Part shown: positions 1,946-61,817 of the stretch, in pieces
Layout: each line of letters opens with the position of its first letter
How positions within the stretch are numbered: position 1 is the stretch's first letter
Source of the DNA: Raillietiella orientalis
Lineage: Eukaryota
Assembly (NCBI GenBank): GCA_036172245.1
Contig: JAYWIR010000031.1
Span: 2,480,001-2,544,000 of the forward strand
Reading direction: 5' to 3'
DNA length: 64,000 nucleotides
The notes under the pieces: generated by a model
Database searches by the model: none
Seen by the model: the letters and a program-made list of their open reading frames with translations, nothing else
What the model was told of the DNA's origin: nothing
Position numbers and translations under genes: made by a program

Positions 1946-2002
1946 GGGACACCAACGATGTGAAAAAACACACACTTCCCAAGAAGAAACGCTTCCCGGT
2001 AC

Positions 2003-4775: not shown

Positions 4776-5600
4776 TAATCCCCCCCTTGCTGCCGAGGAG
4801 AATCAAGGCGGTCTGCGAACCAGCTTCCCGGCAGGTTCCAGGAACTATTGGCCACAGCGGGGCCTAGTACCGCAGATGTACTGTGTTTTTTAATAAACGC
4901 CCCGGCGTAACCGGGTGAAAACTTCCCCGTGTCCAGAGATGACGGCGTGCATTGCAGGGCAGTCCCCAGTGGAACAGCATCAGCGCCGAATCCTGCCATT
5001 TTAGGGGAAGGATCCTGGTTTCAGTTATTACTGGGGGCCAGTTCAGGTCATCAGTCGTGATGCCGAGCAGCTCGCCCCATTTTTTTATTCCTTGCGGAAG
5101 GACGCCATGGGTTGTGGCGTTTGCCAGCTGTCCCATTGTCCAACCGCTCAACAGTTTTTCGCTGCCTGCGATACGGCAAGCGACTTGCCACCTCGGCGTC
5201 GGGCTGCTGACGATTGCCCTACGTAGGAAGGGTAGCACCGTCTCCAGGCAGGTCGTCTCTGCCCAAGTGCTTCTGGCTGGACACTCCGCATTTCGAGTAG
5301 AGTGCAGCGGGCGTATCGGCCGCGTCGCAGGCTAGTCCATGTCACGTGGCTCCTCTTATTCACTACAGCCCACGTGCCAACTGTTTCATCCAGCCATGCG
5401 CTGGACTTGACGGGGCTGCAGATCATCCAAGCATTCTCTTTCGCCAGAGTGCCTACTCGTCCGAGGAGAAGGCCGCATAAGGAATAAATGAATAATAAGG
5501 AAACCTCGGTAGCGGCAAGTTCTTGCTCGCAGCGTTCGGGAACGTCGGGAACCGCGACACGCCCAAACATAAAGCAGTTTATCACCCGGATATGCCTAAG
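4776..5600 (-). mobile_element. Fragment of a diverged Tx1-like ORF2 (C-terminal region)
   Basis: CSPVKSSAWLDETVGTWA and PRWQVACRIAGSEKLLSGWTM..LFHWGLPCNARRHLWT align by eye with ORF 3849..4715 (CSPANFSAWLEETVGMWA; PRWQVSCRIAGKEKDLIGWTM; LLHWGLSCNARRHHWT). Confidence 0.85.
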
Positions 5601-18695: not shown

Positions 18696-20939
18696 TTCCC
18701 AATTGCGAGGGACTCCACCTGGAAGTCGTGCACAAGCCTCGAATCACTTCCTGCGTCACACGTGCACCACAGGATTGATTTCCCACATTCTCACGGACCT
18801 TGCATTCATCTTACCGGTGCTCAGCTTTGTTTCTGGATCTGTTTTCCTGCTACCTTACAGCCACTGGCTTTTCTAAGTTGGCAGTACGGTAATCCTTCCT
18901 GGATACCTCGGCGGCAGGATAGGCGAGATGTTTTTTTTTCCGGGGTCACGAGCGACAAGACTCGCTTTCCGTTTGGTTTCGGAACCGAATCCGAAGTTCC
19001 GGATTCGCAGGGATGCGAATTACTTCCGGTTGGGATGGATTCGCTATCCGCTACGAACTTCCGAATTCACAAGTAGACGCACAAGTAGATAAGCGCTGGA
19101 TTACGCAGCAGTACGATACTCCGAGTTGCGATCTCTTCCACGAAATGCGCGAGTCGATCCGACAACCGAATTCGCAAGCAGCACACAGCAAATTCTTCCG
19201 TCAGGAAAAATCTCCTTTGCTAAGCAACGGGAATCGTTGTCGAAGTGAGAGGTGGCCGTGCTGACGTCACACAACCGACGCTCGAGCAATGCCTTTGGCG
19301 AGTGCCACTTCATCCTGGTTCGGTGCACGCTCATGCTCAGAAAAGTGCGAAGGAAGGGAAACGGGAGCGTTTCTCGCACGCTCACGCTCCCACTTTGGCT
19401 CGATCTTCGCTGTTCCCCATTCTCGGGAACAATTCGGCTTGTTCGTTGCTTTCCTCTTTTCTCGTTCCGTCTAGCGGCAGTCTTTCGTCGTTTGTACGTT
19501 GTGACCATCCAGGGCGTGCGTGTCCGTTCCCTGAAACATCCGCAGGTACTTCGCACTTGTGCACCGGCCCTTCGCATACATCCCGTACCAGCGTCGGGAT
19601 CAACTTGAAAGGCATCTCATTTTCCATTCTCAGGCGGATGAGCGCACCTGTTCCAATAAACGTTCGATGCTGCACGGTATCTAGGAGTATTGCGAATCCA
19701 CTCGGTGTACGAGCTCATGAAGAGTTTTCCTGAAGCTCTCGGTCATCCCCAGTTGCTGCTTTCGTTGCTGCCGCATGCCCAGCGCGCCACCACGAGAGGC
19801 TTCTTGAGCTCCCCTTCGGGCAGCTCGTGCTCGTCCCTGGCAGCCCACTCTTGATTCCCCTGCCGCCCGACGAACCGGGACACGCGCCGGTACCGTCGCG
19901 AGGCAAGTGGTCGTTTTGGAACTTTGTTGCGTGCACCTTTCCCCATCGTGTCCAGTGGAGGAAGTGCTGCAGGACCAGCACAAGTGGGCTCTCCACGCCC
20001 CTTGCGGCAGCGCTTTCTGCTTTAGTGGACAGTTGCCTACCGACGGGATGTGAGGGCGCCCTGCCGATCGCTCGATCAAGTCGTCCCATGGGCGACTGGA
20101 GTCCGAGCGAGCTGGCAGAAGCTGCCACGCCTGGTCATGTTTCCAAAGCAGTCCTTCGCTGCTGTGAACTCTTTAGTGTGCCACCAGAACAACTTGTGGA
20201 CTCTCGTTCGTGCGTGGACGAGTGTGTGTTCCCGCTCCGATGGCGCGCTTCTGCTGGTGCATTGGAGCTTGCAATTCAGCGCGCTAACATTGTCTGCGGG
20301 CAAGCTGCGTCTTCAAAGTGTGCAAGGTGCGGAAACGATCCTGCATCTTTTGCTCCACTGCGGCGACCTGCAAAGAACGTGGCGCAGGCCGGCTTCCGTA
20401 CTCCTGCTCCAGGGGGACACCGCAAGAATTTGGAAGCGCCGCTTCTTCACGCCTGGCAGCTTTTCGTTAGATGCGCTCATCGTAAGGAGGCGTTGCATTC
20501 CATTCCCGTCCCTCCACCAGCAGGAGTCTCGGGCGGTTCTTCGAGACGCCACTTCTTTCGCTGAATTCCACATGACGAAGGCTGCCAGGCAGCATTAACT
20601 CCCAGAAGAAATGAGCGATCAGCTACATGTTCGTTATCCATCGCCGGATCCGCTTGGAGGGAACGGACGAACGCGGAAATCCCTGTCATCATCTCGTTCT
20701 AAAACTTTTTGTGTATTTGTTACATCAGTATTTATGGACTCTTCCGGATTTTTGGTGCGACTGCACGTTACTTGCAGTCCAGCTATCCAACGTGCTTCAG
20801 TGTCGCCGCCGCTGAACGAAAGGAAGGCGCGGTTATTGCTATTTGAAAACTATACCCAATACCCCGCCAAAGCAGTGACTGACCTCACTGCCGCGGCAAT
20901 TTTTGATTGCCTCGAGAGGTCAAATTAGTGGATTAGTGA

Positions 20940-24414: not shown

Positions 24415-27400
24415 GTGGCCATGTTGAGCCTTCGGTATCAGTGCCCGCAGTGCTGCGCTTCCTTTGCAAGCCCCGCCCTCCGGAAGTCACACCATAAGAG
24501 GAAGCACTTAAACATAAACCATGCCAGGGGCGCTGCAAACGAAGCACACGAAGACTGCGGGCCTTGCCCCGAGCTGCCGGACTCGTGGGACGACGAGGAC
24601 GATTCCCTGGACGCCCCTGCCAGTCTCGCCGAAACGACTCAGCGAGTTGGTAGTTGGTTTAGTGCTCCGCTTCCAGAAGGAGGTATAGTGCTAGCAGAGT
24701 CGCTGCTCGATGAGGAAATAACTGAAGCAATGTACGAATCAAGCTCAAAGGTAATTCTATCCCCGGTAATAGTGAGGCCGAACGATACCATTCCGAATGA
24801 ACCGCTTGTTCGACCACAGTCAAAAGAATTCGTCTCTACATTACCACAAGTGGAAATTGAGAAATTTCTTCTCCCAGCATCAGCTGTTAGCCCCCCTTTG
24901 GACGAGACTGTAGAAGTTCATTCCTCTCGCAACTCTAGCCGCTCAACCCTAACAGTTGCGTCGCCTACGCAAATGGGAATAGAAAGGGAGCTTCGAGAGA
25001 GGTAACAGTGTCATTTGCTGCGATGGATCCCAAGGGAAGTAGGACGTCGGGAATGGATGCACAACCATTGCCGGGTGCTACACCAGCTGCTTTAACTGAA
25101 CAGAACGTCTTAATAGTGTAATTACCGATCGCGAACTGCCTGGCTTGCCCGCTGCCGAGGTGTAGATGGAAGACTTTAACTCAAGAAACAAAAAGTACGC
25201 TTGGATCTCTGCGGCGGCGCCTGAAGTCAGCACATTGGATACCGGTACGTGATTCTTACCTGGTATGTAGTCGGTGCGATACGCGAGTACCGATCCCGGT
25301 TTGGGGACACCGATGCGGACCACGAATAATACGTGCTACTGAATCAGCCCCTCTTCTCCGCCCGGAACAAAGCTGCGACCAGCGCTTCCATAACCGGAAG
25401 GCCCTGGCTAATCATGCTCGTTGGCATGATACCATAAGACGAATGGAAGGAATTATATGCAAGGACAGCAGATAGCCCAACCCACATCCTCGACTTATCA
25501 TCGAATTCCCTCAGTCGCATACTATTGATCGAGCTTCCGTCCCACGCTCACCGTACCGTTCTTCAGAAAGCACCACCCCACTGTTGGCTCCTGACCACAC
25601 CATGGAATGGCAAATAGTACCCTCTCGTCATCGCACTGCTAGCTCTCGAAGTGACTGGCGTTCTAAAAAGACAAATCATAATCGTGGAAACACCCTGCCA
25701 AGAGCGAATTCCTTGCCCTCAGTTCTCGATATGCTGTCTTGAATAATGAGCAAAATGACGAAGTTGGGAACTTACCCAATAATCCTACCGCTACGCAAAT
25801 ATCCACACGTGCGGAGACAACACGTCCAAGAGCTGAAAGAAACATGAGGAGAGCCTCCGCTGAATCACTTAGAGAAGCAACTCGGAAGTTAGAAGAATTG
25901 GAGTTGCGAACACCCTCGGTGGAGCGTTGGGGCCTGGCCATGCGGGAGCTAAATTCAGCGTATGACACTTCACGGAACGCCGTTAACCTACGCCCTTTTC
26001 GTCTCTCCGTGAACAACTCTGAAACCGCAAACATGTCTCCAAGGGGCATACAGAGACTTTACAGTAGGAATCGTCGTCGAGCCGTCCGATTGATCCTCGA
26101 TGGCGCTCCAGTAAGGTGTCAAGCTAGCCTTCAAAAAACAAGAGAATCCTTTACAGAGCTCTTTGCTGCCAAACCAGACTTCCACCCCGTATCCTGGGAC
26201 CCTGTGAGTAGTTCGATGCAAGAACAATTTGATATGTCCCCCTCGTCCCTCGCGAGATCGCTATCTGTTTACGGAAATGCGAAGGCACTGCCCCTGGTGC
26301 GGACGGAATTCCTTACTCCGCGTTTCGACGTCTAGATCCTGAGCGTCGCTTTCTCAAAGCGACATTTAACATCTGTCTAGCCCACCGACGCATCCCCCAT
26401 CACGGAAGGAATCTAGGACGACGCTTATCCCCAAAGCGCAGGCTGAACAACTAGAAGACCTATCGCAGTTCCGCCCTATAGCAATCAGCCGAACAATGGG
26501 CAAAATATTTGCCAAATGCCTTGCCCGTAGACTATGTGATTAAATTTTTCGCAATCGCATACTTGGACTACATCAGAAGCGCTTCCTTCTATATGATGGT
26601 GTATTGAGCATAATCTTATGCTCCGGCACCATATGGATTTCTCTAAGCGCCACCATCAACCACTGTGCGTGGCTTGGCTAGACTTAAAAGATGCGTTTGC
26701 ATCCATATATAACATTCTGAATTGCTGAGTGCACTCCTAGGAGCAGATGCTGGCGATATGGCAGATATTGAGCTCATCTGCCACATGTATTCTGAGAATA
26801 CCACTCGGGTCGTTACATAGAAGCTAACACCACCAATCCCTGTTGCAAGGCGAGTGAAACAAGGTTTTCCACTATCGGGACTACTTTTCAACATCACTCT
26901 GGAGCCTCTTTGTACGTATGTTAAACATCAGGTTCCTGAGCAAACATCTTGGCCTATACTGACGACTCGGTCGTCCTAGCCAAAGATGCTACCCCCCTTG
27001 AAAAAGCACTTGATTGTGCAAGCACAATGGCTCTGCGACTTGGACTATCGATGAATGCCAAATAATGCGCATCGTTCCAGTATGATCCGCACACCCCACG
27101 AACTATACGTACTTATCGATTTCGAGTGGCAGGTGAGCTCATGCCTGCCCTCACGGATGGTGGTACTGACAGCTACTTGGGGAAACCCGTGGGCTTTGAT
27201 GCGATACACAGCGGTACACTGGACACGGACATTCTCTTCAGTGTCGCTAAAATTCTAGGTGCGCCCTTAGCACCTTGGCAGAAAATCGATGACGTAAAAA
27301 CATTTATTTTTCCATCCTTTGTGCATGCCATGCGCATGGGATCGAAACCCAAAACCTTCTGGAGTGGGCTTGATAACAGCATAAAAAAGGCGTTAAAGGA

Positions 27401-28730
27401 AGAAATCTTCTCCCTCACACAAGCCTCATCTTCAGAGTACCTGTGTGGTACCTTGGCAAGAGGTAGTTTAGGTCTTGTGCTACTGGCGGAGGAAGCCGAT
27501 ATAATAGGCTGCTGACTCCACTTTTAAACTTTTCTTGCTCGGATCAAATAATTCGTAAAATGGCCTGGGTATCCTTAAAAGAAACAGTTCGCAGAAAAGT
27601 GCGACGAGAACCCACTGACACCCATATATCGGGTTACCTTAGTGGAACTACTGATCCTCCATTTGATCAACCGTCTGGAGATCTCGCCGACTACTGGTCA
27701 CGAGCTCGTGAAGCCTCAAAAAGGCTTAAATTGAAGTGGTATACTATGTCTAGCCATATCTCCACTGAGTTAGCTAGCAAGACCATACGGGAAGGCGATC
27801 GAAAAATGGTTGCTCGTTCTATCCGCAGACTGAACCGCCTTATCCTAAGCAATGCTCTTTTGGCTAAAATTGATCAGGGACGCATCATAAATTGCGTTGC
27901 TCTTCATCCAGACTCTATGACTTTTATGGAACGCCCAGATTTGATTCGCTTTCGCGATTGGCACTTTATCCATCGTGCTCGCCTCACTGAACTGTTCCTG
28001 AACGGAAATCCAAAGCGACCTGGCTTTCATGAGGCATGTCGTCATTGCCCCTATCCCAGAGAAACACTTTATGTGCTGTGCCACTGCATCAAACATTTAG
28101 GGACGAAAATCTTAGCCGGACATAATGCAATTCTGGACATCATAGAGCGATCTGCTCGGCCCGAGTGGAGTCATTTCACTATTGATCGATCGGACCCTGC
28201 CATAAACAGTTCCCTACGCCCGGACATCGTCGCTCTCGCCGGTCAGCGCATGCTCATCACTGATGTCGTCACTCCATTTGAAAATCGGAAGGAGTTTATG
28301 GATATAGCAAGGAACCAGAAGATCGACAAGTATAAAGGTATCTGTGGAGAGTACCAAAATCAGGGTTATCGAGTTAAAGTTGACGCACGCGTTGTCGGAT
28401 CGTCTGGTGGCTGGCATCCGAACAACGGTGCGGTTCTAAGCTGCATCGGTCTGAGTACACACGAAATAAAGGCTATTCGCCCGAGAACTGTGTGCTCGGT
28501 CATCCGTGCAGCTAGAAACATATACTTTGACCACATAAACACCAGACCATCGTCTGATCGTATCAACCATCTGGCTGCAGCTCCGCACGTATCTTGGTGC
28601 AGTGACGCTTTGAAGGACCTTATTCAGTTGTGAAAAAACTCGTTAAGGATCAACGCAATGCTCTGATCCCCAGTGTACTTTCCATCCCAGGGTATATTCA
28701 TATCACATAACATTCAATCGTGGCATCACT
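24415..28730 (+). mobile_element. Near full-length degenerate NeSL/Utopia/R5-type non-LTR retrotransposon (C2H2 fingers, RT, CCHC, restriction-like endonuclease)
   Basis: YQCPQCCASFASPALRKSHHKRKH and CDQRFHNRKALANHARWH (~25375). RT motifs IQRLYSRNRRRAVR, APGADGI, FRPIAISRTMGK, WLDLKDAF, VKQGFPLSGLLFN, AYTDD, YLGKP, LAPWQKID. Then FIHRARL, CRHC..ETLYVLCHC..HN, LRPDIV..ITDV..PFE, KIDKY, VVGSSGGW. Multiple stops and frameshifts. Confidence 0.92.
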
Positions 28731-29030: not shown

Positions 29031-29879
29031 ACTCCTTTCGTTCATTTCCTTCAACAAGCAACGCTTCGGGAGATACCGTCATTGACAGGACCATGGAGCA
29101 CTGCTGTATGATCACAGTCTGCGCAAATAAAGAGCAGGAATATCGCCCCCTCCAAATCCACATTTGCTGTATAGTGATATATATATGCATGTTTCGCACT
29201 GCAGTGTTTTTGATTCCTTTAAAGATAACTTCAGGGTTCGATCGGGGCTCGTTTTGAATTTCACTCACGCTTTCAATTGCCTTTGCCCTAGGAACGCGAC
29301 CGTTGACCTTATTTGGGGCAGCTACGGCCACTTTCGCGTGGAACGCTGCTTCCTGCTCCTGAAGGCGCGTTTACGTGCCTAACCATATGTATGATGCTTT
29401 GGCTGGCTCACCTCTATCGCAGCTCTGGGCTGTCTCACTCTGGGAGTGTGTCTCATGAAGTCCTCTGCATTGACAGGCACTGTCCATTCTTCACTACATG
29501 GAAGTGTGGAGGATGTAAAGTTCACCGAGATCCAGTAACACAAACAGCAGAAAAACTGCCCTGATTTACACTTTCGTAGTTTCCACCTAGTTAGTCTCAA
29601 GATGAAAATTACGCTTTCCAGTAATGGGGTTTAGGGCCCTCGTAGGGGGTCAGCCTTTGGTGCAACGACCGAGCATCACTCTGGAGGACTCAGTCGTGAT
29701 CATAATCTCGAAATCAAGGTCTAGGGACCACAAGATACAGAAGAATGCTTCAGAATGAGAAATCTAGAATGTGTTGGTTTTGTAAAGCCCGTACAACAAA
29801 TCACGGCAAGGTTTATGCTTAGTGCCCGACATTAAGGGTGGGAATCCTGGACTATCAATTAAATTGTACACACAAAATA

Positions 29880-30711
29880 TTAAATCCCGTACACAACTCG
29901 TGAATCCATTTCTTCATTCTTATGTCCCCTATAATTTGTGTGAGTTGAGCCCACTGTTCGGATGTCGGTGAAATGATGAAGGGTACAGTGAATTACGTTT
30001 ACTGAGCCATACATTCGGGGTGTCGATGTAGCACCAGTCAGATGCAGCATCTCGTGCTGAATACGTAGTTCACATACACACATGCAGTTCTGTTTTCAAA
30101 TTGATAACACACAGGTGATCTGTTTTGCTGCCAAGTAAGCTGCTTCCAGATTTGGGCAGAATCACCATTTTTAATATTCGCGAAATCTTCCTCTTCTCTC
30201 TGGATGTGTCATAAGTATTATAATTATACTCTCCAGCTATTTGAAAATTCAACACATCCGTCTTATTTTGACGAGAAAAAGTTTCCGTAAGAAGTTCGAA
30301 AGTTATGCTCACACCATACAACTTTACATACTCAAACATACTCGATATTCTAGTCAGATCTAATAATCCAAGCAACGCACTCACCATGCAGTTACGAAAA
30401 TCGGTATGGTACACAAAGCAACCAACATAATAACCTTCACTGCGAACAAGCCTCAGCTCTTGACTAACAGTATCAGCACCCTCCGTAGAATCAAAGTAGC
30501 TAAACCTAATACGCGCTCCAGAACACAACATCTTCCCAATCCAAGAGGAAGCACGTCCAAAATTACGACGATAATCAGCACACCTTCTCCTGTAATTACG
30601 TTTACGATAATTACCACGAAAATGCAATACACAACGTCTGTGTACGTAAATAAACATTCCTTGAGATAAGCACGACAACGTGTACGTGTACGTGAGAACA
30701 GGCATCCTCAC
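29880..30711 (-). pseudogene. cap: Endogenous CRESS DNA virus capsid gene (degenerate)
   Basis: Arg-rich N-terminus RGNYRKRNYRRR..YRRNFGR and SSMFEYVKLYGVSITF, resembling the circo-like F(D/E)Y-x-(K/R)I..V.V.F motif. Divergent from rep; probable frameshift near 30080. Confidence 0.7.
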
Positions 30712-30895
30712 ACCGCAACCTCTTGTATCCTGAAGGATTCCAATAAAAAGACAACAGAGATAATAAGAACCCCCTGACCCTCACATCCCAGGAATCGGAC
30801 ACCGACTACGCAACCACCACTTGGAAAGTGCAGAGGGCAACTCTGACCTCTGCACTTTCAAAACCATAGAAAACCGTAACACACACAGCTACAAC

Positions 30896-31770
30896 ATGCC
30901 ATACAGAAAGTGCACGCAGTGGCGCTTCACTTCAAACAACCGGGCAACCGCAGAAGAAGCAAGTACACAGGGAAGGTTACTTCAAAAAGAAAAAAAACAC
31001 GCAATCATCGGTGAAGAAGGAAGCTCAACAGTAACCACGCATCTCCAGGGATCCTTCTAAACAGCAATACCTGCACGATACCTCAACTAAAACGAATGCA
31101 AGGTTTCTCAAGAGCTCCCGTCGAAAGCGCTGAAGTAAATCCTCAACACAAGAAGACCAACAACCACGCGAAAGAAGCAGACCGACAAACGACAAACCTC
31201 CTACTATACGAGAACAAGTACATCGATTACAAACACAGATGAACACAATTCATTCCAGATCATCGCATACATAAAAGAAGGAAAACACAGAAAAACAGTT
31301 TTCACAGAACTGTTTTTCATACGAAAAACGGAAAGCCTTCAACATCGACAGCATAAGACTCGGGAAATCCTACTCTACAAACCATCCAGTGATCCTCGAA
31401 AGATCACAACTATGGCTAAGAACCCTACCAAACTCACACAAAAAGAACCTAACGACCGAGATGTACATTCGTACACCGACTACCAAGGTAACTCGTGAAA
31501 AACCAGAATAGCTAAACGTATCTATATCAAATACCACGCACCAATCGTACAAGAGCGCGACGCCCACATGCGGAAGGGAGAGGAAATCATCATGCTGCAC
31601 CTCACATGACCACATCAACTACGGAATTATAGAAAGCCGAAAAAACGGAATATCGCGCTCCACTTAACATCGAGGTCACGTTAAATTATACGATCCACCT
31701 CGCGTCATCATCTTCTCCAGCATGGACACCGACTACGAGAAAATGTCAAGCGACCGCTGCATCATCCCTT
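30896..31770 (+). pseudogene. rep: Endogenous CRESS DNA virus Rep (HUH endonuclease plus SF3 helicase), nanovirus/alphasatellite-like, degenerate
   Basis: Motif I WRFTSNN (cf. WCFTLNN), AIIGEE, motif II THLQG (31040), PNDRDVH..DYQGNS*KT (Walker A, 31487-31504), EEIIMLHL (Walker B), INYGIIESRKNG, PPRVIIFS (motif C), KMSSDR (arginine finger). Confidence 0.88.
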
Positions 31771-32516
31771 ATTGCACTGAAGATCTATTGGAACCAATGT
31801 CAACTAAGAATGGTATTTCTCATGCCACTGCTCTAAGCATTTACTCGTTGAATGAAAACCATGGTGCTGAATTATTGCCTACCTTGACCATGGAAATCTC
31901 CAAGAAAGTTTCCATTCAATCTTTCTAAACAAGATTCCAGTGAGAATTCTCCACGCTCCTGAAGCAATCCTCTCTTGCTCTTTGTGAGTTTTTGAAACAG
32001 CACAATTGTTTCTACATGTTCCTGTCATCCACAGCATCCAGTTCATCCTTAGCTTTTGCAACATGGAAAAAAGGACAGATTCCAGTCATGCACGGGGCAC
32101 ATCGGATACACACGCCTGAACTGACAGGAAAGACACATGGATGCTCGAGGAGTCACGAAAAAAAGCAGGTCGTCATCAGATTGTGACCGTAATAAGTAAG
32201 TTTCCCAACACGAAAACATTACTCCTGCAAAACCATGCAGTCAGCAATTGTGGAGACTTTCGGACGAGGAGATTGTGACCATCAAGCATACTGACGTTTC
32301 AAGTCCCAGCGACACGTTGTTTTCTAAAGTTCTGTCACAAGCTGATACTTGAATTCTTGTCAAAAACTTTTCTTTGTATGTTTCCTCATGCATACGTAGC
32401 TTTATCTGTTTAAAAAATGAAAATGCTACCGACTTGAATTGTATATCACTCTTCAATAAAAAAAACTTTGTACACCAAGACTGTTGTAAAGAATTCATTC
32501 ATGTTTCCGCATTTAG

Positions 32517-34012: not shown

Positions 34013-34621
34013 AGGAAGGAAATTTTGAACAAAACAAAGTCCCGCAGCAAAATGGAGTACACTACAGATGATTATGATTCCTTCGAAATACTCCCACTTC
34101 CCACAATAGCAGATATTTTCTTGTTTTCTATCACAAAATCATATTCACAGGAGAACCAAAGGAGAACAAATGCACACCCACCATGGGCATATCACCGAAA
34201 CCCGCAAAAGATTCAGGGGGTCAAAACGAAAAACAAAATAAATCACCCTGCGCGCTGTGCTTAGACACACACACAAAAGAACATCGAAAACGCAATCAAC
34301 CAGGACAAACCCAGGTAAAACCCGAGAACAAAGGCACACAGCAGACACCACTGCAGAACAAACAAACCACCAGTCAAAACAAAACGTCCAATGCAAAGGA
34401 GAAGAAAGCAAAGCAGCAAAGCATTGAAAAGCATCAAAAAAGGAAGGCAGGCACCCACAACGATCGCCACCCCTTGGCACAGAAGGTGGTCTCCAAGATT
34501 GACGGCCTCCGGCGAGCGGACTGCCCGTCGACCTTGTCAGCCCACGGACGACGCGAGGAATCGTCGGTGCACCTCGACCAGCGGGACCTACGGCCCGTCG
34601 CACTGCAACGATTTCAATGTC

Positions 34622-35500
34622 ACGCATCCAGAAACAGTGGATCCAATGCTGGGTAGTCGAGTGGACTGACGTGAGAAAACAGTCCACTTGGCACGCCAAG
34701 TGCAACTCGGTAGGTGGGAAAGGGGAGAAATGAGCGTCACGGTCCAACGTCCGGGAGCTTCCTCGGGGGGAAGGGTGGCTCCCAGGGCGATCGTCGTGCC
34801 CAGAAGAAGAGGCTCGTCGCGACGTTGCAATCAAAGTTGGTTGGCCAACTGAAGCGATTCTTCAAGGGAAACGTGTGACAACACAAAGCGAGGCATCGCA
34901 CGCGCAAAGACCGTAGGCCAGGGCGGCCCACGGGCGACGGGCGGAATCGTCGGGGCAACTCGGCCGACCGCAACTACATCCACACATCCAGAACGCTTCC
35001 ACTACCACGCTTCAGAGAACGAACAGTGGGGTGAGAGAGAAGGGAAGTGCGTCCCTCCAAGGAGGGGAAGTTTCCTCGCTGCGGAGCTCCAGAAGCAGGA
35101 AGGAAAAGCTCGCTTTAGAGCAACAGGCCCGCTCGGCGGTAGAGCGCGCTGAGCTCAACCGGACGCAGGAAAAGGGTTGCCGGGGGATGCAGCGCCTCAA
35201 CCGCGAAGGGGAGAGTCACTTTGGCAGTGGCACGTGCCGAAGGATCGAGCAGCGCATCCAGAAACTGTGAATTTCATTGCTGGGTAGTCGAACGTACTGA
35301 CGTCAGTAACCAGATCACTTGGCACGCCAAATGCAACTCGGGAGCGGGGAAAAGGTAGAAGAGCGCCTCACGGTCCTGCGTCCGGGAGCTCTCTCGGGGG
35401 GAAAGGTGGCTCGCGGGGCGAGCGTCGTGCGTGCGAGATCTTCGTCGCGATGTTCCTACAAGATTTAGTTGGCCAACTGAAGCGACTCTTCAAGAGAAAC
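34622..35500 (+). repeat. Diverged direct duplication, ~250 bp units at 34622-34870 and 35252-35500
   Basis: Shared cgcatccagaaac..tgctgggtagtcga..cacttggcacgccaa.tgcaactcgg..cgtccgggagct..gttggccaactgaagcga.tcttcaag. Confidence 0.85.
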
Positions 35501-48296: not shown

Positions 48297-51200
48297 TCAT
48301 TTCACGTTGTTTTCAAGTCTCATGGTTTGCGGCCATGTGTACATCAAATCGGATCCATGGGCTTTGCGAAATGCGGGAAAGGAGGCATGAGGGCTTGTTT
48401 CAACCAAAATGGTACGGTTCTTGTTGCCGATTTTGCAGCGAAGGCGAGTGCCGATCGCTACAGGCAGCTGCTGCTTGTTGTAACTGTGTACAAAAGTTTA
48501 CCGCTGCCACCAACTCGAAAACAGTAAACCTACTTACGTGTAATATTGTGAGCACATGATCCCAATCAGTTCGCCAACACGATCTGTAAGCAAAGGTGTG
48601 TGCAAAGACATAACCAAGTCACCAGTGTTTTGCTCCATATGGATGATGACCAACTGATCCTGACCTGGACTGGCACTTATCCCTGTTACCTGTTAAAATG
48701 ATCAGAGAATCAAGCGATCTTCTTTCTTTCTCTTTCAACCTTGCTGAAGGAAATTCCTGGTTTGAGAGAATGGAACTTTCTCGAGTCCAGTTTATAAAGA
48801 AAACAATCTGTGATCAGAATGGCTCTTTCTGCACATCTGTTGTAATGATTGAATTTTCGTATAAGACCAGAGAATAGGATGCTGTGAAAATGTTCTGCCT
48901 TCTTCAGTTCATTGACGGAGGACAAGAAAGATGCGTACTCTGCATTCTCTTTAGGAAGTGCTAAATAATTGCCATGCCAATCTGATCCGTATCCCCAACA
49001 TAACCTGCGACCCTTGAGGGCATCGGCAGCAAAAACCTGTCGAAGAACATTCAAGATTAGAGATCCAGAGGGGGTTGACATTGCCTTCAAGCGCATTTCG
49101 GAGAGTTTGTCTTTGGGAAATTTGTTCAGAATCATATAAGCCCACCATCTTCGGTAAGCAGACTTCAAAAGACGAACCGTTGGAATAAGGAAAGCTGGTG
49201 GCAATGGCCATTTCAAAGATTTGCCGTAGTCAGGCATTTGGTGCACACCTCTGAAACAACATCGACCGTCTCGTGTTATCATTTCGACGAAAGCTTACCG
49301 GAACTTTCTGATCAGCTCTTCTATGTAGGACCGTAGTTTGTATTTTTTGTAATATGCTTCTATAGTTAAAGAGGCCAAGATCTTGCGATAACGAACTCTG
49401 CATAGCGTTCCTCTCCACATCTTCTGGAGCAAGGTCACGACGAAAGGTATCCTGTCCGAGCGCTCCTAGCACCCAAAAATAAGATCTTCATTTCCAAAAC
49501 ACATTCCGGTGCCTCACTTGCTCTAAGGCAAACACAGTCCGTGGAGAGCGGAAAAATATCTTCGTTCTTCCGTACTCTGTATCTTTCTCCATATTGCGCT
49601 CCTTAAGTATGGTTTGAACTCCGTACTTTTGCTCACCGTGGAAGACAGGCCAGGTTCTCTTAGAGAGCATCTTGTACCTGCAAACAGCAGTGCATCATTA
49701 GTTAAACGCAAGAGTTGTCAAGTACAATTAAGAATGAATGTTGCAGGAAATGAACCATCGTGGGAGATGATCTGCGAGAGCATCGTAAGCATTCTTAGGT
49801 ATTGAGGTGAGTAGGGCAAAAAGCTGCAAAAGTGGAAAGAGTTTCAAGATTCGACTGCCGGATGTGATGCAGAAAGAAAGCAGTCCCTCTTATTCAAGAG
49901 GGTCCCAGCTGAATGAGAGACAGCATTCCCAAATGCATCGCAGACGATCATGAAACGGGATCACCTCATACAAGTTGTAAGTAGACAAGCTCTCTGATTA
50001 ATTAGATATGAGCTAAGAAAGAAGCATGTAGCAGAATTCGAATGGAAATTGGCACCGTGATGAAATATCCCCACATCACAAAAGATATCGGTACAAAACT
50101 GAGTGATTTTTTAATGAGGAATACCCTGCTGAGTTTAGCAGCCATGGTTGAGAAAAACTTCAAAGGATGCATTAGAAAAGAAGAAGAATGAAAGAAGCCC
50201 ATGCAGGTTTGGTCCGCCTCTCGAGATACCGACCCGTGACATCGGGAAAAGGAAGCAGGAAAGCATATGGTGTAGTGTGACTTGAGAATATGCTGATTAC
50301 CTTTGCAAAAATCTCTCGTAACTCTGGCGGTAGGCAAAGCCTGCTCTTCGTACTCTCACATTCTCCAGTAATCCTAAATAATTCACCTGATGTATAACAC
50401 GCTCCTTGTTGAACAGCGAAGGCGATTTGTATTCATTCGGTTTTATGCAACGGATATAAAAGGGCTGCTTGGAAGCCAGGTTTCTGACCAAAGACATCAT
50501 TGAATTTTTGAAAAGAGTACCGGCTGTAAGCGGCCTCTTTGTGGTCTACAATCTGACTTCATAGCAATTTGTCCTATGATGCTTTACCTCAGTTTTTTCC
50601 ATGGCCCCTTCTGGCCACATAACACGAAGTTCTCCATTCTCAGAGTTGTACAAAAGTCTTTTAAAATCCTGGAACAGCATATCCTTGTTTTTGTCTAAGA
50701 ATCCTGTTATGTTGTATATGACGTCCCCAGCATAATGCCTGCAGAACATCTCTGAATAAGGATATTAATATGGACAAAACAGACTCTCACTTGATGCGGA
50801 ACTCAACTGAGTGCTTAACTTCTTTATCTGTGGGATTTGTCCTTCGACTGCTATAATGTTTGTGGGAACTTAACTTCTGGTCGAAAGATTCCAAAAGCAT
50901 CTGCATCCGTGAGAACACAGAATAGACTGTTGACCACTGACAACAAATGACAGGGTGGTTACCGTGTCCGTGACTTTGCCCACATTCAAGCACGCCTCGT
51001 CCATGATGGCCAGCATTCCTTTATGAGGCTGTTCCACAAGATCACAGATGATTTGGTTATTAAAATACTCGATCGGGGTCCAAGCTATTCCTTCCTTCTT
51101 GTACTCTTCTTGCTCTTGTTTCAAAACGAGTTCTAGGTGGAAGATAAAATTTCAGATGCATACTTTTCTTTCTTTTCTTCCTTCACAATAGTAAGGAACT

Positions 51201-54200
51201 ACCACAAATTGGAAAAAAAAAAAAAAAGCAAAATAAATTCCGAAACATTTTGAATCCAATCAGAGGTTAATCAATGCCATTTTCTCATGTGAAAGTATAA
51301 AATGGTTACAATGTATCAGTGTATAAAATGTTTGCAGTTTTTCTCAAAGTTCTCATTGATGGAGATTTCAGGCCATCCGTAATCGCATTCTCATTCTGCT
51401 GTGTACATACATATCTGACAAATAAGTGTAAACAAAATAGTGTGAACGTGAGAATTCCGATTGCCCTGTGTATGTGTTCACTGTTCGGACATTGAAATGT
51501 GCAGCCAGGACTGACTTTTAATGTTTTCAATAAAATTGCGCACCTTTTATTCTACTTGTTATCCTCATCATCGATGAAGATAGTAAATCTCTGTTGTTGA
51601 GTTTTCGCAGTGAAAAATGGATCTTCATTATTCCAGGCTGTTTCTCATTCCGGACTTTCATCAAACTGGGCAAGGACATAGGAAATAAATAGTCCATTTC
51701 TTATTCAATCATACCCAAAAGGATGATGGGAATTCCTTTGAGTTCTTTACTCTTTCGTTAGATTTCCTTCCAGCTTCTTCTCCTTTTCTTTTCTCGAGCT
51801 TTCTTCGATTTTCTAGAGTTGGCTACTCAAGAGCCGATCGCCTAAGGGTTCGCGAAGCTCCCTCAACAGTTCCATGTCATGCGGGGGGTGCGTGTTGATG
51901 ATGAACAAATTACTTAATTTTCTGTTGTGTCCGATTAAAAAATGATGAATTGCGAGCACAATTCGTATTTTCTCAAAGGCAAAGTGCAATTCCAAATTTC
52001 TTAAGTTAGGTTATCTTAGTTCTCTCCGTATCCGCCGTGGTACAGATCATAGGAGGCATCTGTGCTTACAAGAATCGAATCAGATGCTGTGAGAGATTCG
52101 CAAGGCATCACAGGGTAACATTCAAATGGAAATTGGAAGCCATGTTTTCAAAGAAACATACGTAAAAATTTCTGTTTGTAAACTCACCTAAAAAGATTGA
52201 ACTTGGAAAATACAATCGATCGTGGCTCCGCATCGCAGAGTGAGGACGAATTGCATTTTCCACTATTATGACACTCTTCTATAGAAATGATGGGTGTGCG
52301 ATATCAGTGCAGCACCGTTAGTACAGATCATATTCGTTCACTAGAAGGGTTCGTTGGAAATTGGAGTTAGGCAAAATTTACGAAGTACGTTTCCGCTGGA
52401 AGAGATTAAAAAGGGTTGGAGATAGGTGTTCGCTGCACGCAACTCTCGGATGGGCACACTCGTTCTGCTGATCTTCCTCAACATGGCACGACAACTTGAA
52501 GAGATGCAAGAACGCTTACGTGTTTTGTGGATATATGCCTCACGAAAGCCTTACCGGGGTCTACTTGATCGTATGTACGGCCACTGGACTTCCCAGCTTG
52601 GAATGAAACTCGTCAAGAAAGAGCTTGAGCTTCTTATGAATTAAGTGAAGATTCAGACCAAAGATCAATCGTCGAATTTGGATGACCCACAAAACGGTGC
52701 TCCGAAAATTTTGGTGAACGGAACGCACATGGAACACATTTCGAGATTCGAAACGACAGGATGATAAATATCGGAAATATTCCAAGGAAAATCACAAGGA
52801 AAATACAAGACTCAACCATTCCATCTTTAAAACACATCCCATTGAAATAGTAATACAAAGCAGAATTCAAAATTTCTTAGTCGATCCTTGGAAAAAATAC
52901 CGATCTTTACATAGGATCCTTGATGAGGATGTATCACGAAACACGCTTTTGTTTTCTTGTAGACACAAGCAGGATCTTTTCTTTCTTTTTTTCTTTTTTT
53001 CGATTTTCTAGAGTACCAATCAAAGTAATTTAAGAGCACTTTGATGAGCACAGAGATGACCGTAAACTCAGAGAGCAAGCAATTTCAGCATATAAAATAT
53101 GAATCGCTTATTTTGCCCCCAAACAAAAACAAAGTCAGCTCAGTAAAAAGGGAAAAAAAAGAAAAAAAAAGGTATCTTTTGATTCGTACGTTTCACCGAA
53201 AATGAAAATTTTTGGTGAAATACAAAGGCTAACTTGTGATCAGCAGCAAGCGATGCATAGCAAAAAAAAAAATGGCTTACCGATGAAAAGTTGCTGCAGT
53301 TTTTCATTGCAGTAATTTATGCAAAACTGCTCAAAACTATTATGCTCGAAGATCTCAAACCCGTAGATGTCCAGGACTCCAATGATAGTGTCTCCATGAG
53401 AATCACGATCGGAAGCATGAATGACATCGTTTATTTGAGAGACGATGTGAGTGAATAAACGATCGTAAATGGCCTGCAATAAAGGACTGAATGAAATGTG
53501 TACAGAACACTGGAAAGGTGATTTTCCATCGAAACAAGCGTTTAGAAAGTTGGACACGCTGGAAAGAAAGAACCGGCGGCTTCCGTCTGTACGACGTATG
53601 AAATCACGACGTACCATGGACAGGAACCCGAGGTTCATTTGGAAACGATTTAGCTCTAAATTATTTTCGAATCGAATCTTTGGAGAATGTGAATGAAGAC
53701 GCCATACGCGTCGAACTTCCGAAAACGGAAGGCGCCTTTTTCAAAAAGTCAAACCCGGCATTACAGATGCCCAGCGGAGAGCCGACAGAGTCCACTCAGC
53801 AGAAATGGACCTTTTAGATTCCTCGAAAAGTTAACATTCCCATAGCCTCAGAAACATCCAAGTCGCGATCCCGGCCCACGGGCATGGGAAGAGTTACCTT
53901 TGCAAATGCATCTTTGGCATAGTACGCCTCATTTAAAGTGTGCTCTTTCTCGACAATGTCTCCTCTTGCAGCAATAACTCTGGAGCACAAGGCCGTCGCA
54001 AGAGCATCCTCGCACACATCCAGGAGCAGGGACACCCAATGCAGTTCCTGCTCATTCTTTACGAGCGTTTTGTCATTTTCCGAAGCAAACTCTATGTTCC
54101 CCTGAAAAGAAAGCAAAACACTTGGCGGAACCAGTCAGCTGAAAGCACTTTTGGAAAAGGAATGCGGACGTGGATGCTCCACAGAGGAGGACTGGAAATC

Positions 54201-55849
54201 CCAGGAAGATGGAGGAAAACTCCAGAAAGATCGAAAGTGAAGTCTGGCGTCCCTCTCGCATTTCTTTCGTTCCGTAGGATAGCGAACGTATTTCTCGTGA
54301 ACGTAAAGGCCCATTAGGCAGTAACTCGAATTCGAGATCAAACAGGTCATTCCAACCTGTTTTTCTTTTTTTTTCTTCTTCTTCTTCTTATTATTATTCA
54401 GGCAAAAAATTCATGATTTGGTTCACCACAGGAGTCTTTTGCAAATACTAGCGATTGAAAATTAATCAATAAATTACTAATAGCGATTAGTCTTTCAGGC
54501 ACGCGAATCGTTTCTCTGGATGACCATCCGGAAGCACAGGGAGCACAATGAAATTTTTAAGTGCGGCCTGGAAAAATGAAATTTCGAGGTTGCTGTTTCA
54601 TGAGATTCGTAGAAGATGAGAATCCGATCGGTATGAAGAATGCGATCGTTCTGAAGAGCTCCAACACGAAGCAGAGAAGTCTTCGGGCAGATGCATATCA
54701 CGGATCTAACAGCGATCTAACAGAGCAGCGATTTTCATGAAAATCAACTCCTCCAACAGCGACTTCCACAAAAGTTCCAAAGACAGATAGGTGACGGCTA
54801 CATAAGAGACCAATTAGTAGTGATGCCTCAAGATCGATACTTCGTGTAAAGGTCATCATGGGAGGAAAAAAATTTCTTTTTCCTTCACTCTAGATGTGCC
54901 GATTTACAGAACAATTTGGGATCAGAGGAATGCTCTTTCACTGATTTTCCACTGTTTTCACTTCATACTACGTTCATTCTCGGAACACTATGGTCGGCAA
55001 TACATGGCCTTGAATTTCAAGAAAGTGTGACCACAACCAACAGCTTTGGAGGCCCCATGAACACACGCACAAATCAAATAGTAACAAGAACTTGGCGGGA
55101 AGTGAAATTCTAGAGCAGAGAATACCTGGTTCTAACCGAGGCGCCAGGAATTCGTTAACGGTAACCCCCCCCCCCCCAACAAAAAAAAAGGGGGGGGGAT
55201 TTTCTGAACAGAAAGCAAGGAATTCGTTAACGGTAAAACCAAAAAAAAAGGGGAGGTGGAATTTTCTGAACAGAAAGCAGGAAAACGAGAGAAATTCTCC
55301 AAATTCCTCAAATACTCATCCTTTTGACAAAACGAGGAACAACACAAAAGGCAAATGCAACACGGCGACACGGAGTTGAGAAACAAAAAGAGTATTCAAA
55401 AATGCGATCAAAGCTCAATGGGATGAAGCTGCGCAGCATCGCACGAAATCCACACCGCCCAGGGATTTCCGATCCGTTGCAACAAGTAGAGGGATTCTGC
55501 AGAGGTTTCCAAGAAACCTGAGACTCGTGACCGCGGAAACGAGGCAAGGTGCCCCGTTCTGAGGACTGCGATCGCTTCGATGGAAACGAACAAACATCTC
55601 CAGATCGACAAGTTGCATGGCTCTCGTAACACGTGAAACGACCGAAGAGAGCTGATTCATCTCTACATGAAATTTCGAAAAGGAAGCAGACTGAGAACTC
55701 CAGGCAAACAAACGTGGCTTGATAAATGCAAAATCCATAGAAAAAAAAAGAGAGAGAGAGAGAGAGAAAACGAAAGAAAAAAAAAGTCCTAGGCTATTTC
55801 TGCGGAATGACGCTGGACAAAGTAGCAACGAAATACACACACACGGGAA

Positions 55850-55884
<35 letters not shown>

Positions 55885-61800: not shown

Positions 61801-61817
61801 TTCGAACATTTCTCTTC
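48297..61817 (-). CDS. MYO1D: Unconventional class I myosin (Myo1D/G, hum-5-like; motor, IQ, TH1); 5' exons outside the window
   Basis: In-frame exons: 61817-61622 ([14 protein letters not shown]), 57749-57530 ([18 protein letters not shown]), 57483-57268, 54101-53898, 53473-53281 ([15 protein letters not shown]), 51132-50963, 50900-50791, 50738-50588 (HYAG), 50545-50301 ([14 protein letters not shown]), 49677-49518 (GRTKIF), 49465-49299 (IQ), 49250-49085, 49036-48740, 48689-48538, 48483-48297 (stop). Subclass assignment is by recall. Confidence 0.93.
52380..52800 (+). mobile_element. Possible RTE-like RT remnant in a myosin intron
   Basis: [16 protein letters not shown] and [19 protein letters not shown] resemble RT domains 5-7; very degraded. 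Confidence 0.3.
55147..55281 (+). repeat. Two-copy tandem repeat (~65-70 bp) with homopolymer runs
   Basis: aggaattcgttaacggtaa[C/A/G runs]attttctgaacagaaagca occurs twice. Confidence 0.85.
55748..55880 (+). repeat. (GA)n and (AC)n microsatellites
   Basis: agagagag.. at ~55749-55767 and acacac.. at ~55853-55880. Confidence 0.9.

Follow-up and report, generated by a model that had tools for sequence, protein, structure and literature searches.

We asked whether a locus in the middle of a 64-kb window (the whole stretch of DNA analysed here, 64,000 nt) holds the remains of a CRESS-DNA virus inserted in a host chromosome, as proposed in a preliminary description, and, if so, from what kind of virus it came. 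The CRESS-DNA element occupied positions 30070-31811 (~1.74 kb) and consisted, in this order, of a cap-like ORF on the minus strand, a spacer with a hairpin and, on the plus strand, a rep gene that is no longer intact (Table 1). These results support the insertion of an ambisense CRESS-DNA virus at close to unit length, its Rep since decayed, and the element is very probably a real endogenous viral element. The proposed ambisense arrangement of cap and rep was borne out, and a spacer was present between them, 190 nt long by our measurement instead of ~185 bp. The 3' end of cap had been placed at 29880, which was incorrect: the last coding position was 30073, and the segment beyond the stop codon showed no codon-phase signal, strand skew or protein match (29880-30069). 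Animal genomes are already well known to harbour fossils of this virus phylum, and the element is unusual mainly for its near-completeness.

Table 1 Positions of the features of the element in the window
Feature	Position	Strand	Remarks
Segment earlier counted as cap 3' end	29880..30069		Viral 3' intergenic remnant or host flank
Capsid-like ORF	30073..30705	-	211 codons from ATG 30705; stop 30070-30072; stop-to-stop 30070-30780 = 236 codons
Intergenic region between cap and rep 5' ends	30706..30895		190 nt; plus-strand A+C 0.69
Putative origin hairpin	30824..30859		Perfect 13-bp stem 30824-30836/30847-30859; 10-nt loop
Rep N-terminal HUH endonuclease part (predicted)	30896..31057	+	ATG frame (ATG at 30896); motif I WRFTSNN, motif II THLQG; ends at TAA 31058-31060
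Rep stretch expected to hold motif III	31058..31201	+	Three ATG-frame TAA stops, or two frameshifts via frame 0
Rep linker and SF3 helicase start (predicted)	31202..31597	+	ATG frame; Walker-A stretch 31439-31540 with TGA inside (31496-31498)
Rep helicase C-terminal part (predicted)	31599..31811	+	+1 relative to ATG frame; INYGIIE..KNG, VIIFSS, SSDR; TAA 31665-31667

It was targeted searches that confirmed the identity of the putative Rep, whereas Pfam and a search of more than a billion sequences did not. A profile built from 24 natural Reps and run against the six-frame translation of the window (128,000 residues) matched the helicase end with 44.5 bits (i-E 3.8e-15, 31602-31811, hmm 278-347) and the region from the nuclease to Walker A with 21.3 bits (i-E 4e-8, 30833-31552, hmm 22-253). 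The two matches were colinear, and the top score elsewhere in the six-frame window was -4.2 bits. By tblastn, all 120 further Reps taken from an independent profile search matched the element, the best with E 8e-13 (P0060), and the best match off the element had E 0.002. Single alignments reached up to 42% identity over 66 aa in the helicase end (L013, E 7.6e-11) and E 1e-4 in the N-terminal part (L034), and colinear HSPs were also found in the linker and Walker-A region; the Rep of PDB entry 7kii matched the N-terminal part with E 0.032. Pfam was searched with 14 stop-to-stop pieces and with read-throughs in which X was placed, and the sole match was Viral_Rep in the N-terminal part (E 0.056, 14.1 bits), below the gathering cutoff of 26, a score that reference relatives of the Rep do pass; RNA_helicase had no match in the rep pieces or read-throughs. 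Of the profile checks that had been suggested, Viral_Rep was thus below its cutoff and RNA_helicase and Circo_capsid gave no match, and it was the custom Rep profile that matched. No matches were returned by phmmer with the ATG-frame rep read-through against 1.84 billion proteins, nor did a word search of longer proteins with the C-terminal piece of rep return any. The first reference Reps were retrieved from IMG/VR by a pattern made from the element's own motif, so that ~18-20 of the 44-54 C-terminal bits are circular (a rough estimate from BLOSUM62 values); the 21.3-bit upstream match and the N-terminal HSPs are unaffected by this bias.

Nearly all Rep motifs had been considered readable, and this was so for motifs I and II, the Walker-A stretch and the C-terminal block, in a gene that is nevertheless broken by stops and a frameshift. 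Motifs I (FTxNN-like) and II (HxQ) aligned with the profile columns of the 24 natural Reps and with L034, L030 and 7kii, the Walker-A stretch aligned to the Rep profile despite its internal stop, and the C-terminal block INYGIIE..KNG.../VIIFSS/SSDR was readable over 31599-31770. Stops in the ATG frame were located at 31058, 31088 and 31136 (all TAA), with more stops at 31496 and 31665; depending on the frame chosen at 31058-31201 there are two to five in-frame stops (the best-supported path has two), together with one frameshift or more, of which one is near 31597-31602. The codon-phase signal vanished in 31058-31201. Motif III (YxxK), already regarded as uncertain, could indeed be recognised in no frame, and the frame-0 piece 31015-31242 scored -0.8 bits, with at least 8 of 500 shuffles scoring higher (top 5.2); such an absence is expected of a decayed copy. 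From the stops, one of them in Walker A, the frameshift and the absence of a recognisable motif III, we infer that the Rep is dead. The element would now be inert as a replicon, its Rep neither nicking the origin nor unwinding DNA. The codon-phase trace also hinted at extra rep frameshifts between ~31256 and 31435.

The helicase signature had been described as nanovirus-like, and the profiles agreed. The Mulpavirales-like profile gave its 44.5 bits on the helicase end, where a circovirus-type profile (35 WWDGY Reps) found nothing; the latter matched only the nuclease part (30896-31345, 12.4 bits, i-E 2.2e-5). By its sequence, the helicase is of the nanovirus/Mulpavirales type and not of the circovirus type. 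The named best matches in the profile search were Nanoviridae master Reps and one Anicreviridae Rep. In the tree, the element Rep sided with Mulpavirales members over circovirus-type Reps, being located inside the Mulpavirales-like set (SH-aLRT 100 versus the WWDGY outgroup) and outside the Nanoviridae clade (clade support 100). It grouped weakly (82) with Reps including those of L022, L034 and L005, from ambisense genomes of 2-2.9 kb, in a tree where the element branch is long (2.63) and the retrieval of the ingroup began from the element's own motif. When a clade of the element with Nanoviridae was enforced, the AU test gave p = 0.34 in a set free of alphasatellite references. The Rep phylogeny called for in the preliminary description thus places the element in the Mulpavirales-like set and outside Nanoviridae, and leaves a clade with Nanoviridae unrejected. 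The contiguity of cap-like ORF, hairpin and rep on one unit rules out Nanoviridae and alphasatellites proper. To speak of an orphan, unclassified lineage was an overstatement, as monopartite 2-3 kb genomes with such a Rep, both unisense and ambisense, are present in IMG/VR. The order Mulpavirales now includes the non-nanovirid families Anicreviridae and Amesuviridae, and the table of one review gives invertebrates and vertebrates for Anicreviridae (PMC11945456).

The nearest relatives were uncultured CRESS-DNA genomes of 2-3 kb in IMG/VR: L022, L034, L005 and L006, and the unisense L001, L013, L015, L027 and L030. Their Reps resemble that of the element, with the same nuclease motifs, a helicase end of the form NYG..E..KNG ... 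S.DR and 37-42% identity over 50-70 aa, and in L005, L006 and L022 cap and rep are, as here, on opposite strands of one small circle. Their caps showed no detectable similarity to that of the element. Most of those examined carry a canonical nonamer (mostly TAGTATTAC) in the hairpin loop, whereas the loop of the element has none, and the best-scoring relatives (L013, L030 and others) are unisense, unlike the ambisense element, whose copy is broken and chromosomal. Among named viruses, the Rep of Uewvirus yahnais (Anicreviridae, P0078) gave three colinear tblastn HSPs, covering nuclease, Walker A and helicase end (E 6e-10, 97 bits in sum); Anicreviridae belong to the same order as Nanoviridae (Mulpavirales) but were not the sister group of the element in the tree. 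The helicase signature is common to the element, the M-Reps of Nanoviridae (FBNYV, SCSV, BBTV and others) and alphasatellite Reps; nanovirid Reps had weaker tblastn E values (1e-6 to 1e-3), and the sequences compared included none that was identified as an alphasatellite. Nanoviridae infect plants and have circles of ~1 kb with a single gene each (L004, L016 and others, 1.0-1.1 kb), while the element has cap and rep in one unit. With Circoviridae (Circovirus/Cyclovirus, CVe) it shares an ambisense layout in which cap and rep point away from a hairpin in the spacer between them, a size of ~1.7-2.1 kb, an arginine-rich Cap start and a nuclease part that the circovirus-type profile recognises; it differs from them in a helicase missed by the circovirus-type profile, in having no Circo_capsid Pfam match and in lacking the canonical nonamer NANTATTAC.

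The cap-like ORF had an arginine-rich N-terminus (residues ~22-51), no internal stop, and a codon phase that was constant from 30705 to ~30100. When 29880-31800 was shuffled 2000 times with dinucleotides preserved, 8 shuffles had an open frame of at least 200 codons. Third codon positions held G or T in 145/211 cases versus 225/422 at positions 1+2 (Fisher p = 2.3e-4). Sequence searches with this ORF retrieved no homologue: Pfam gave no Circo_capsid match at E <= 10, an IMG/VR pattern search gave four pattern matches with none confirmed, a word search gave 128 candidates with none scored, and comparison with the ORFs from an initial 34 loci and later with 728 ORFs of 160 loci (blastp, phmmer, jackhmmer), gave nothing below E 0.09. 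The AlphaFold2 model made without an alignment was unusable (pLDDT 33). In the ESM Atlas, the best clusters (0.93, with 184-190 shared features) were of Cressdnaviricota, and 29-46% of their members carried Circo_capsid, which we take as a lead only towards capsids of this phylum. We call the ORF capsid-like on account of its position, size, arginine-rich start, codon periodicity and this language-model lead. Its frame most likely survives because an A-poor coding strand seldom gives rise to stops and the insertion is of no great age; selection is a less likely cause.

The hairpin in the spacer had a predicted DNA fold of -19.5 kcal/mol (z = -6.28), none of 200 shuffles was equally stable, and perfect stems of at least 13 bp were found at only 6 loci in the 64 kb. 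Its loop reads GCAACTCTGA on the plus strand and TCAGAGTTGC on the minus strand and is without the canonical nonamer; compared by eye with TAGTATTAC, at most 5/9 positions agree, on the minus strand.

The plus strand of the element was 65-70% A+C, a skew that was located mainly at the third codon positions of both genes (in cap, as tested above, and in the N and C parts of rep) and that had sharp edges at ~30300 and ~31750. Its relative L006 showed the same third-position skew and carries the TAGTATTAC nonamer on the cap-sense strand. The third-position location of the skew indicates viral inheritance and not decay in the host; most simply, it would come from a deamination bias on a cap-sense encapsidated strand, the identity of which is deduced. 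Of the five rep stops, four are TAA, the codon to be expected on an A-rich strand. Three other sources of the skew were considered. Post-integration hypermutation (APOBEC/ADAR-like) was rejected in view of the third-position peak of the skew, and regional transcription-coupled asymmetry in view of its abrupt end at both edges; a retro-copy of an edited transcript was dropped, as no poly-T/poly-A tract was seen beside the cap end on reading the sequence.

Both sides of the element were of eukaryotic type. The window contains no N, and the element lies in its middle with >28 kb of eukaryotic sequence on either side, where we found a U4 snRNA, Myosin_head and Myosin_TH1 exons of a class-I myosin with introns, and RT-like ORFs, the retroelement ORFs being located at 1-5.6 kb and 25.7-28.6 kb. 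The CpG o/e was 0.89, and one retroelement ORF gave an arthropod/mollusc lead. On these features the animal genome of the preliminary description is likely but not proven. The viral sequence is contiguous with host-type features on both sides and is disabled by mutation. One DNA run, referred to as run X1, contained 7% of the sampled words, whose presence was noted in no RNA run, and its contigs were aligned at 85% likeness. Eleven short contigs aligned, one at >=99% (29410-29588), three at 90-95% and seven under 90%; contig depth was zero over 29612-29923, 30548-31691 and 32212-32315, and 29933-30073 was covered by one short contig, 89% alike. None of the 11 contigs, in a run with 7% of the sampled words, was shown to bridge virus and host; the proposed germline host link is probable, and these contigs do not confirm it at read level. 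Contigs resembling the cap region had small indels of +1, -1 and +4 at 30271-30282. A search for other copies, also suggested earlier, found none within the 64-kb window by blastn or tblastn, and no convincing terminal redundancy or flanking repeats were seen (best flanking pair 27 nt at 74%). Short run X1 contigs that diverge from the window were found over both flanks and over some stretches of the element, which hints weakly at another copy in the genome.

Our main reading, to which we give a probability of about 0.85, is that a monopartite ambisense CRESS-DNA virus (Cressdnaviricota) was endogenised in a eukaryote, probably an invertebrate animal. The Rep of the source virus would have combined a circovirus/nanovirus-type HUH nuclease with a nanovirus/Mulpavirales-type SF3 helicase. 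Its double-stranded replicative form may have been captured in a germline chromosome after a break in the viral circle where the 3' ends of the two genes face each other, an opening that would give the linear order cap (-), 5' intergenic region with hairpin, rep (+). Circovirus-type EVEs are well documented in animals (PMC6069186, PMC3198968), and publications on animal Rep fossils of both nanovirus-like and circovirus-like type go back to 2011 (PMC3198968). By the counts given in these papers, Liu et al. 2011 had 302 Rep-like versus 3 capsid-like sequences (PMC3198968), and the 93 invertebrate sequences of Dennis et al. 2018 were all rep, with no new cap (PMC6069186). As described there, invertebrate CRESS-like elements resemble ours in having a decayed Rep in host contigs and long branches among unclassified CRESS lineages, and differ in being almost only rep, whereas cap, origin hairpin and rep are kept together here. 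Most CRESS-DNA viruses are known from metagenomes alone, without a host, and a chromosomal fossil is a direct host link, which here would tie a monopartite lineage with a plant-nanovirus-type Rep helicase to a probable invertebrate. The joint copy of cap, hairpin and rep would preserve the gene order and strand bias of an extinct virus and supplies a capsid sequence beyond the reach of similarity searches; the value of the element is incremental.

Two of the alternatives concern the fate of the insertion. Host selection could hold the cap ORF open, as a domesticated CRESS jelly-roll capsid, while rep decays. We consider this unlikely, even though cap has no stops and a constant phase over 211-236 codons against two to five stops and one or more frameshifts in the ~300 codons of rep, open frames of its length are rare in shuffles, and PMC3198968 and PMC6069186 both discuss how genes of ssDNA viruses may be co-opted. 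The A-poor cap-sense strand seldom yields stops, while the rep stops are mostly TAA on an A-rich strand; a rough Poisson probability of no cap breaks, given the rate in rep, is ~0.03 and not decisive. The indels in the cap-like contigs of run X1 imply that that copy is not kept in frame, and on a non-systematic reading of the sequence no canonical polyadenylation signal was seen past the cap stop. If true, a domesticated cap would be a rare instance of an animal co-opting the capsid, not the Rep, of a circular ssDNA virus, and would also tie a nanovirus-related monopartite lineage to an invertebrate host. An equally doubtful proposal is that the element serves as a small-RNA template, i.e., an EVE in a transposon-rich region feeding piRNA-type antiviral immunity. 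Arthropod EVEs act as piRNA sources, and the neighbourhood of the element is rich in retroelement ORFs; this role is compatible with an endogenous viral fossil and not exclusive of it.

The other two alternatives dispute the endogenous virus itself. That the element is not integrated, but is an exogenous virus or a food or parasite contaminant mis-joined during assembly, is highly improbable. CRESS viruses are common contaminants, for which PMC6069186 cautions about short contigs, and no junction-spanning piece occurred among the run X1 contigs; nevertheless, the sole replication gene of a replicating virus would not be interrupted by a stop in Walker A, other stops and a frameshift, the element is central in 64 kb of N-free, eukaryotic sequence, and the divergent contigs over flanks and element parts, weakly hinting at a second copy, also argue against a mis-join. 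Least probable of all is a non-viral origin, as a Rep-bearing plasmid remnant, a Helitron-like element or a CRESS-derived transposon. HUH Reps are also found in plasmids and transposons, and geminivirus-like transposons in fungi are mentioned in PMC3198968, but the lack of convincing terminal inverted repeats, the virus-type layout and the capsid-like ORF with its arginine-rich start beside a hairpin between divergent genes point to an endogenised virus, and every relative by score was either a small circular genome of a virus or a named viral Rep.

The element is a true fossil, close to unit length, left by a monopartite ambisense CRESS-DNA virus whose Rep is of the type found in Mulpavirales, the order that includes Nanoviridae, Anicreviridae and Amesuviridae. 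Its rep gene is real, though hard to see with generic searches: Pfam gave only Viral_Rep at E 0.056 on the first rep piece and no further match in the rep pieces, a PDB search returned a single weak Rep match (7kii, E 0.032), and neither phmmer against 1.84 billion proteins nor a word-index search with rep found any match. Natural Reps were therefore collected for targeted comparison. A degenerate pattern of the window's helicase motif fetched 34 loci from IMG/VR, 28 of them Reps; four of the five representatives tested passed the Pfam Viral_Rep threshold, and two of them also matched RNA_helicase. When the 28 Reps were aligned to the whole window by tblastn, all strong matches fell on the element (best E 7.6e-11, 42% identity over 66 residues, 31599-31796). 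When the 24 Reps of this set that are close to full length were made into a profile and run on the six window frames with stops as X, two colinear matches resulted, one of 44.5 bits (i-E 3.8e-15; 31602-31811, columns 278-347) and one of 21.3 bits (i-E 4e-8; 30833-31552, columns 22-253), the next best score in the window being -4.2 bits. Since these Reps were chosen by the element's own motif, the C-terminal score is partly circular, by an estimated ~18-20 bits; the upstream 21.3-bit match is free of this circularity. All of 120 further Reps, collected from a protein collection with a profile of 12 IMG/VR Reps, had HSPs on the element (best E 8e-13), and the best match elsewhere in the window among these 120 queries was E 0.002.

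Features of the element and of the surrounding host sequence (window positions)
Feature	Position	Strand	Details
rep start ATG	30896	+	
Cap-like ORF	open 30780-30073; ATG 30705, stop 30070-30072	-	211 codons from ATG
Spacer between cap and rep	30706-30895		190 nt
Perfect 13-bp hairpin with 10-nt loop	30824-30859		inside spacer
U4 spliceosomal snRNA gene, complete	20786-20919	+	Rfam RF00015, 59.2 bits, model positions 1-138
Retroelement remnants	25682-28633 (+) and 1-5600		
RT-like ORFs	2255-2920		RVT_1, E 9e-4
Class-I unconventional myosin exons	48710-62000	-	Myosin_head E 2e-21 to 3e-38; Myosin_TH1 E 3.5e-12
Myosin_head pieces	61462-61911, 57371-57895, 53240-53740	-	
Myosin_TH1	48710-49294	-	

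The frame opened by the rep ATG is interrupted by TAA stops at 31058, 31088 and 31136 and by a TGA (31496) that falls within the Walker-A stretch, and ends at 31607; the helicase end runs on in the +1 frame from ~31599, with a TAA at 31665. The codon-phase trace suggests further shifts between ~31256 and 31435. In total, the Rep presents at least one frameshift, and its in-frame stops number two to five according to the path followed. Motif III was not recognizable at 31058-31201, where it is expected: the frame-0 reading of this stretch, plausible by eye, scored -0.8 bits against the profile, with at least 8 of 500 shuffles scoring higher. With a frameshift, stops and no recognizable catalytic motif III, the predicted Rep cannot be functional.

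The ORF at 30705-30073 was read as the capsid gene because it lies on the other side of the hairpin from rep and runs in the opposite direction, and because of its size together with a basic N-terminus (~40% arginine or lysine at residues ~22-51), its three-base periodicity (G+T at 145/211 third positions vs 225/422 at positions 1+2, p = 2.3e-4) and a language-model look-up, in which the 15 best-set hits were Cressdnaviricota clusters and Circo_capsid was present on 29-46% of the members of the top three clusters (score 0.93, 184-190 shared features). No sequence search found relatives of cap, and single-sequence fold prediction gave no usable structure. The codon phase is constant from 30705 to ~30100, and among 2000 composition-preserving shuffles just 8 held an open frame of at least 200 codons; the ORF did not arise by chance but was inherited as a gene and has survived. 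The stretch 29880-30069 beyond the cap stop, taken into the element in the preliminary description, has neither periodicity nor skew.

Folded as DNA, the hairpin in the spacer reaches -19.5 kcal/mol (z = -6.3), a stability matched by 0 of 200 shuffles. The 64 kb contain just six loci with a perfect stem of at least 13 bp and a 4-15-nt loop, and the chance of one falling inside a 190-nt spacer is, by rough arithmetic, ~2 in 100. Compared with the canonical nonamer, the loop matches at 5/9 positions on the minus strand and 2/9 on the plus. An exact 14-nt direct repeat, GGACACCGACTACG, occurs between cap and rep, immediately upstream of the hairpin (30797-30810), and again at the 3' end of rep (31724-31737), with an 86% copy at 31471-31484; it could be due to chance on the skewed strand, iteron-like or a recombination trace.

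Between ~30300 and 31750, A+C makes up 65-70% of the plus strand, a skew that ends sharply on both sides. At third codon positions it reaches 0.73 and 0.61 in the two halves of cap, 0.72 in the N-terminal part of rep and 0.74 in the C-terminal part, vs 0.42-0.61 at the first and second codon positions. Being strongest at third positions, it therefore arose under coding constraint, i.e., in the virus, and the same peak rules out post-integration editing or hypermutation as its source. The relative L006, an uncultured IMG/VR locus, presents the same third-position pattern and carries its nonamer TAGTATTAC on the cap-sense strand. The cap-sense (minus) strand, biased towards T and G, would be the encapsidated one, which the nonamer match of the element's loop weakly backs. 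Four of the five rep stops are TAA, and stops are concentrated in rep and absent from cap because the A-rich strand carries rep, whereas cap is on the A-poor one. That selection has kept cap open, through co-option by the host, seems improbable to us; small insertions and deletions in those short contigs of run X1 (a DNA sequencing run) that are similar to the cap region argue weakly against conservation. A second strongly A-rich, T-poor stretch is found at 34050-34650 (+; AT skew up to 0.66), where a low-complexity open frame of 192 codons (34078-34656, +) encodes many K, Q, N and T residues and has no similarity to the element.

The nanovirus-like character first noted for the helicase held up. 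A circovirus-type profile, made from 35 Reps fetched with the WWDGY-type motif, recognized only the nuclease part of the element's Rep (12.4 bits) and nothing in its helicase end, and the named matches in the broad Rep search were master Reps of Nanoviridae and a single Rep of Anicreviridae, that of Uewvirus yahnais. Nanoviridae or alphasatellites as such are excluded by layout, because their ~1-kb circles carry one gene, whereas the element has cap, hairpin and rep on one unit. A maximum-likelihood tree was built from 64 rows, hand-chosen (9 named Reps, with 34 from the set of 120, 10 from the 28 and, as outgroup, 10 from the 35) and without reference sequences of alphasatellites, geminiviruses or smacoviruses; the element entered it as a read-through, with X at each break and across 31058-31201. 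On a very long branch (2.63), it fell inside the Mulpavirales-like set (SH-aLRT 100 vs the outgroup of circovirus type); it lay outside the nanovirid clade (100) and grouped loosely (82) with Reps from metagenomes, among them those of loci L022, L034 and L005; a clade of the element with Nanoviridae was not rejected by the AU test (p = 0.34).

The preliminary description had proposed an orphan, unclassified lineage, but IMG/VR already holds genomes of 2-3 kb with the same Rep type, and the lineage is uncultured but not unknown. Cap and rep are on opposite strands in L005, L006 and L022, and rep is opposite a second large ORF in L034; L001, L013, L015, L027 and L030 are unisense. The best matches to the element's helicase end were the Reps of these five unisense genomes (~2.0-2.2 kb), whose origin hairpins are near-identical, with a G/C-rich stem, a loop TAGTATTAC or GACTATTAC and a common conserved flank GAGTGTGT.

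The window is eukaryotic DNA with 0 N in 64 kb. Its clearest host gene is the class-I myosin, with exons split by multi-kb introns; the U4 gene sits in an intergenic, repeat-rich portion. Several retroelement-like ORFs were also found. Beside the element, a 388-codon open frame (27467-28633, +) had no Pfam match and resembled protein clusters whose known members come mostly from arthropods or molluscs and in part carry zf-RVT (Atlas score 0.96-0.98, a lead only); by eye it presents a cysteine/histidine motif and an endonuclease-like end, which may be as in R2-type elements. CpG observed/expected is 0.89 across the window, a value ill-suited to a vertebrate. Host features, this CpG value and the retroelement likeness are best read as those of an animal, probably an invertebrate.

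In favor of true integration are the broken replication gene, the central location within 64 kb of eukaryotic sequence free of gaps, and the presence of host features to either side. Elements of this kind are already known, and the present one is a further member, of interest for its completeness, intact capsid frame and host link. Across 35 eukaryotic species, Liu et al. 2011 reported 302 endogenous sequences resembling Rep and 3 resembling capsid, in geminivirus-, nanovirus- and circovirus-like clades mostly outside established families (PMC3198968). In Dennis et al. 2018, the 93 invertebrate sequences are all rep-derived, with no new cap (PMC6069186), and in Rosario et al. 2018 such elements are placed among invertebrate-associated CRESS diversity (PMC6186406). 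Keyword searches found no account of an invertebrate element of nearly unit length that combines cap, hairpin and a nanovirus-type rep; the supplementary tables of these papers may list similar ones.

Run X1 was the only DNA run that matched, with 7% of sampled words in common, and none of its short contigs bridged a junction. Contigs with 84-93% identity lay on the two flanks, on the 3' half of cap and at the rep end; one contig joined 31819 to 31911, skipping 91 nt, and one was identical over 29410-29588. This pattern could correspond to a diverged second copy or to the orthologous locus in a related organism.
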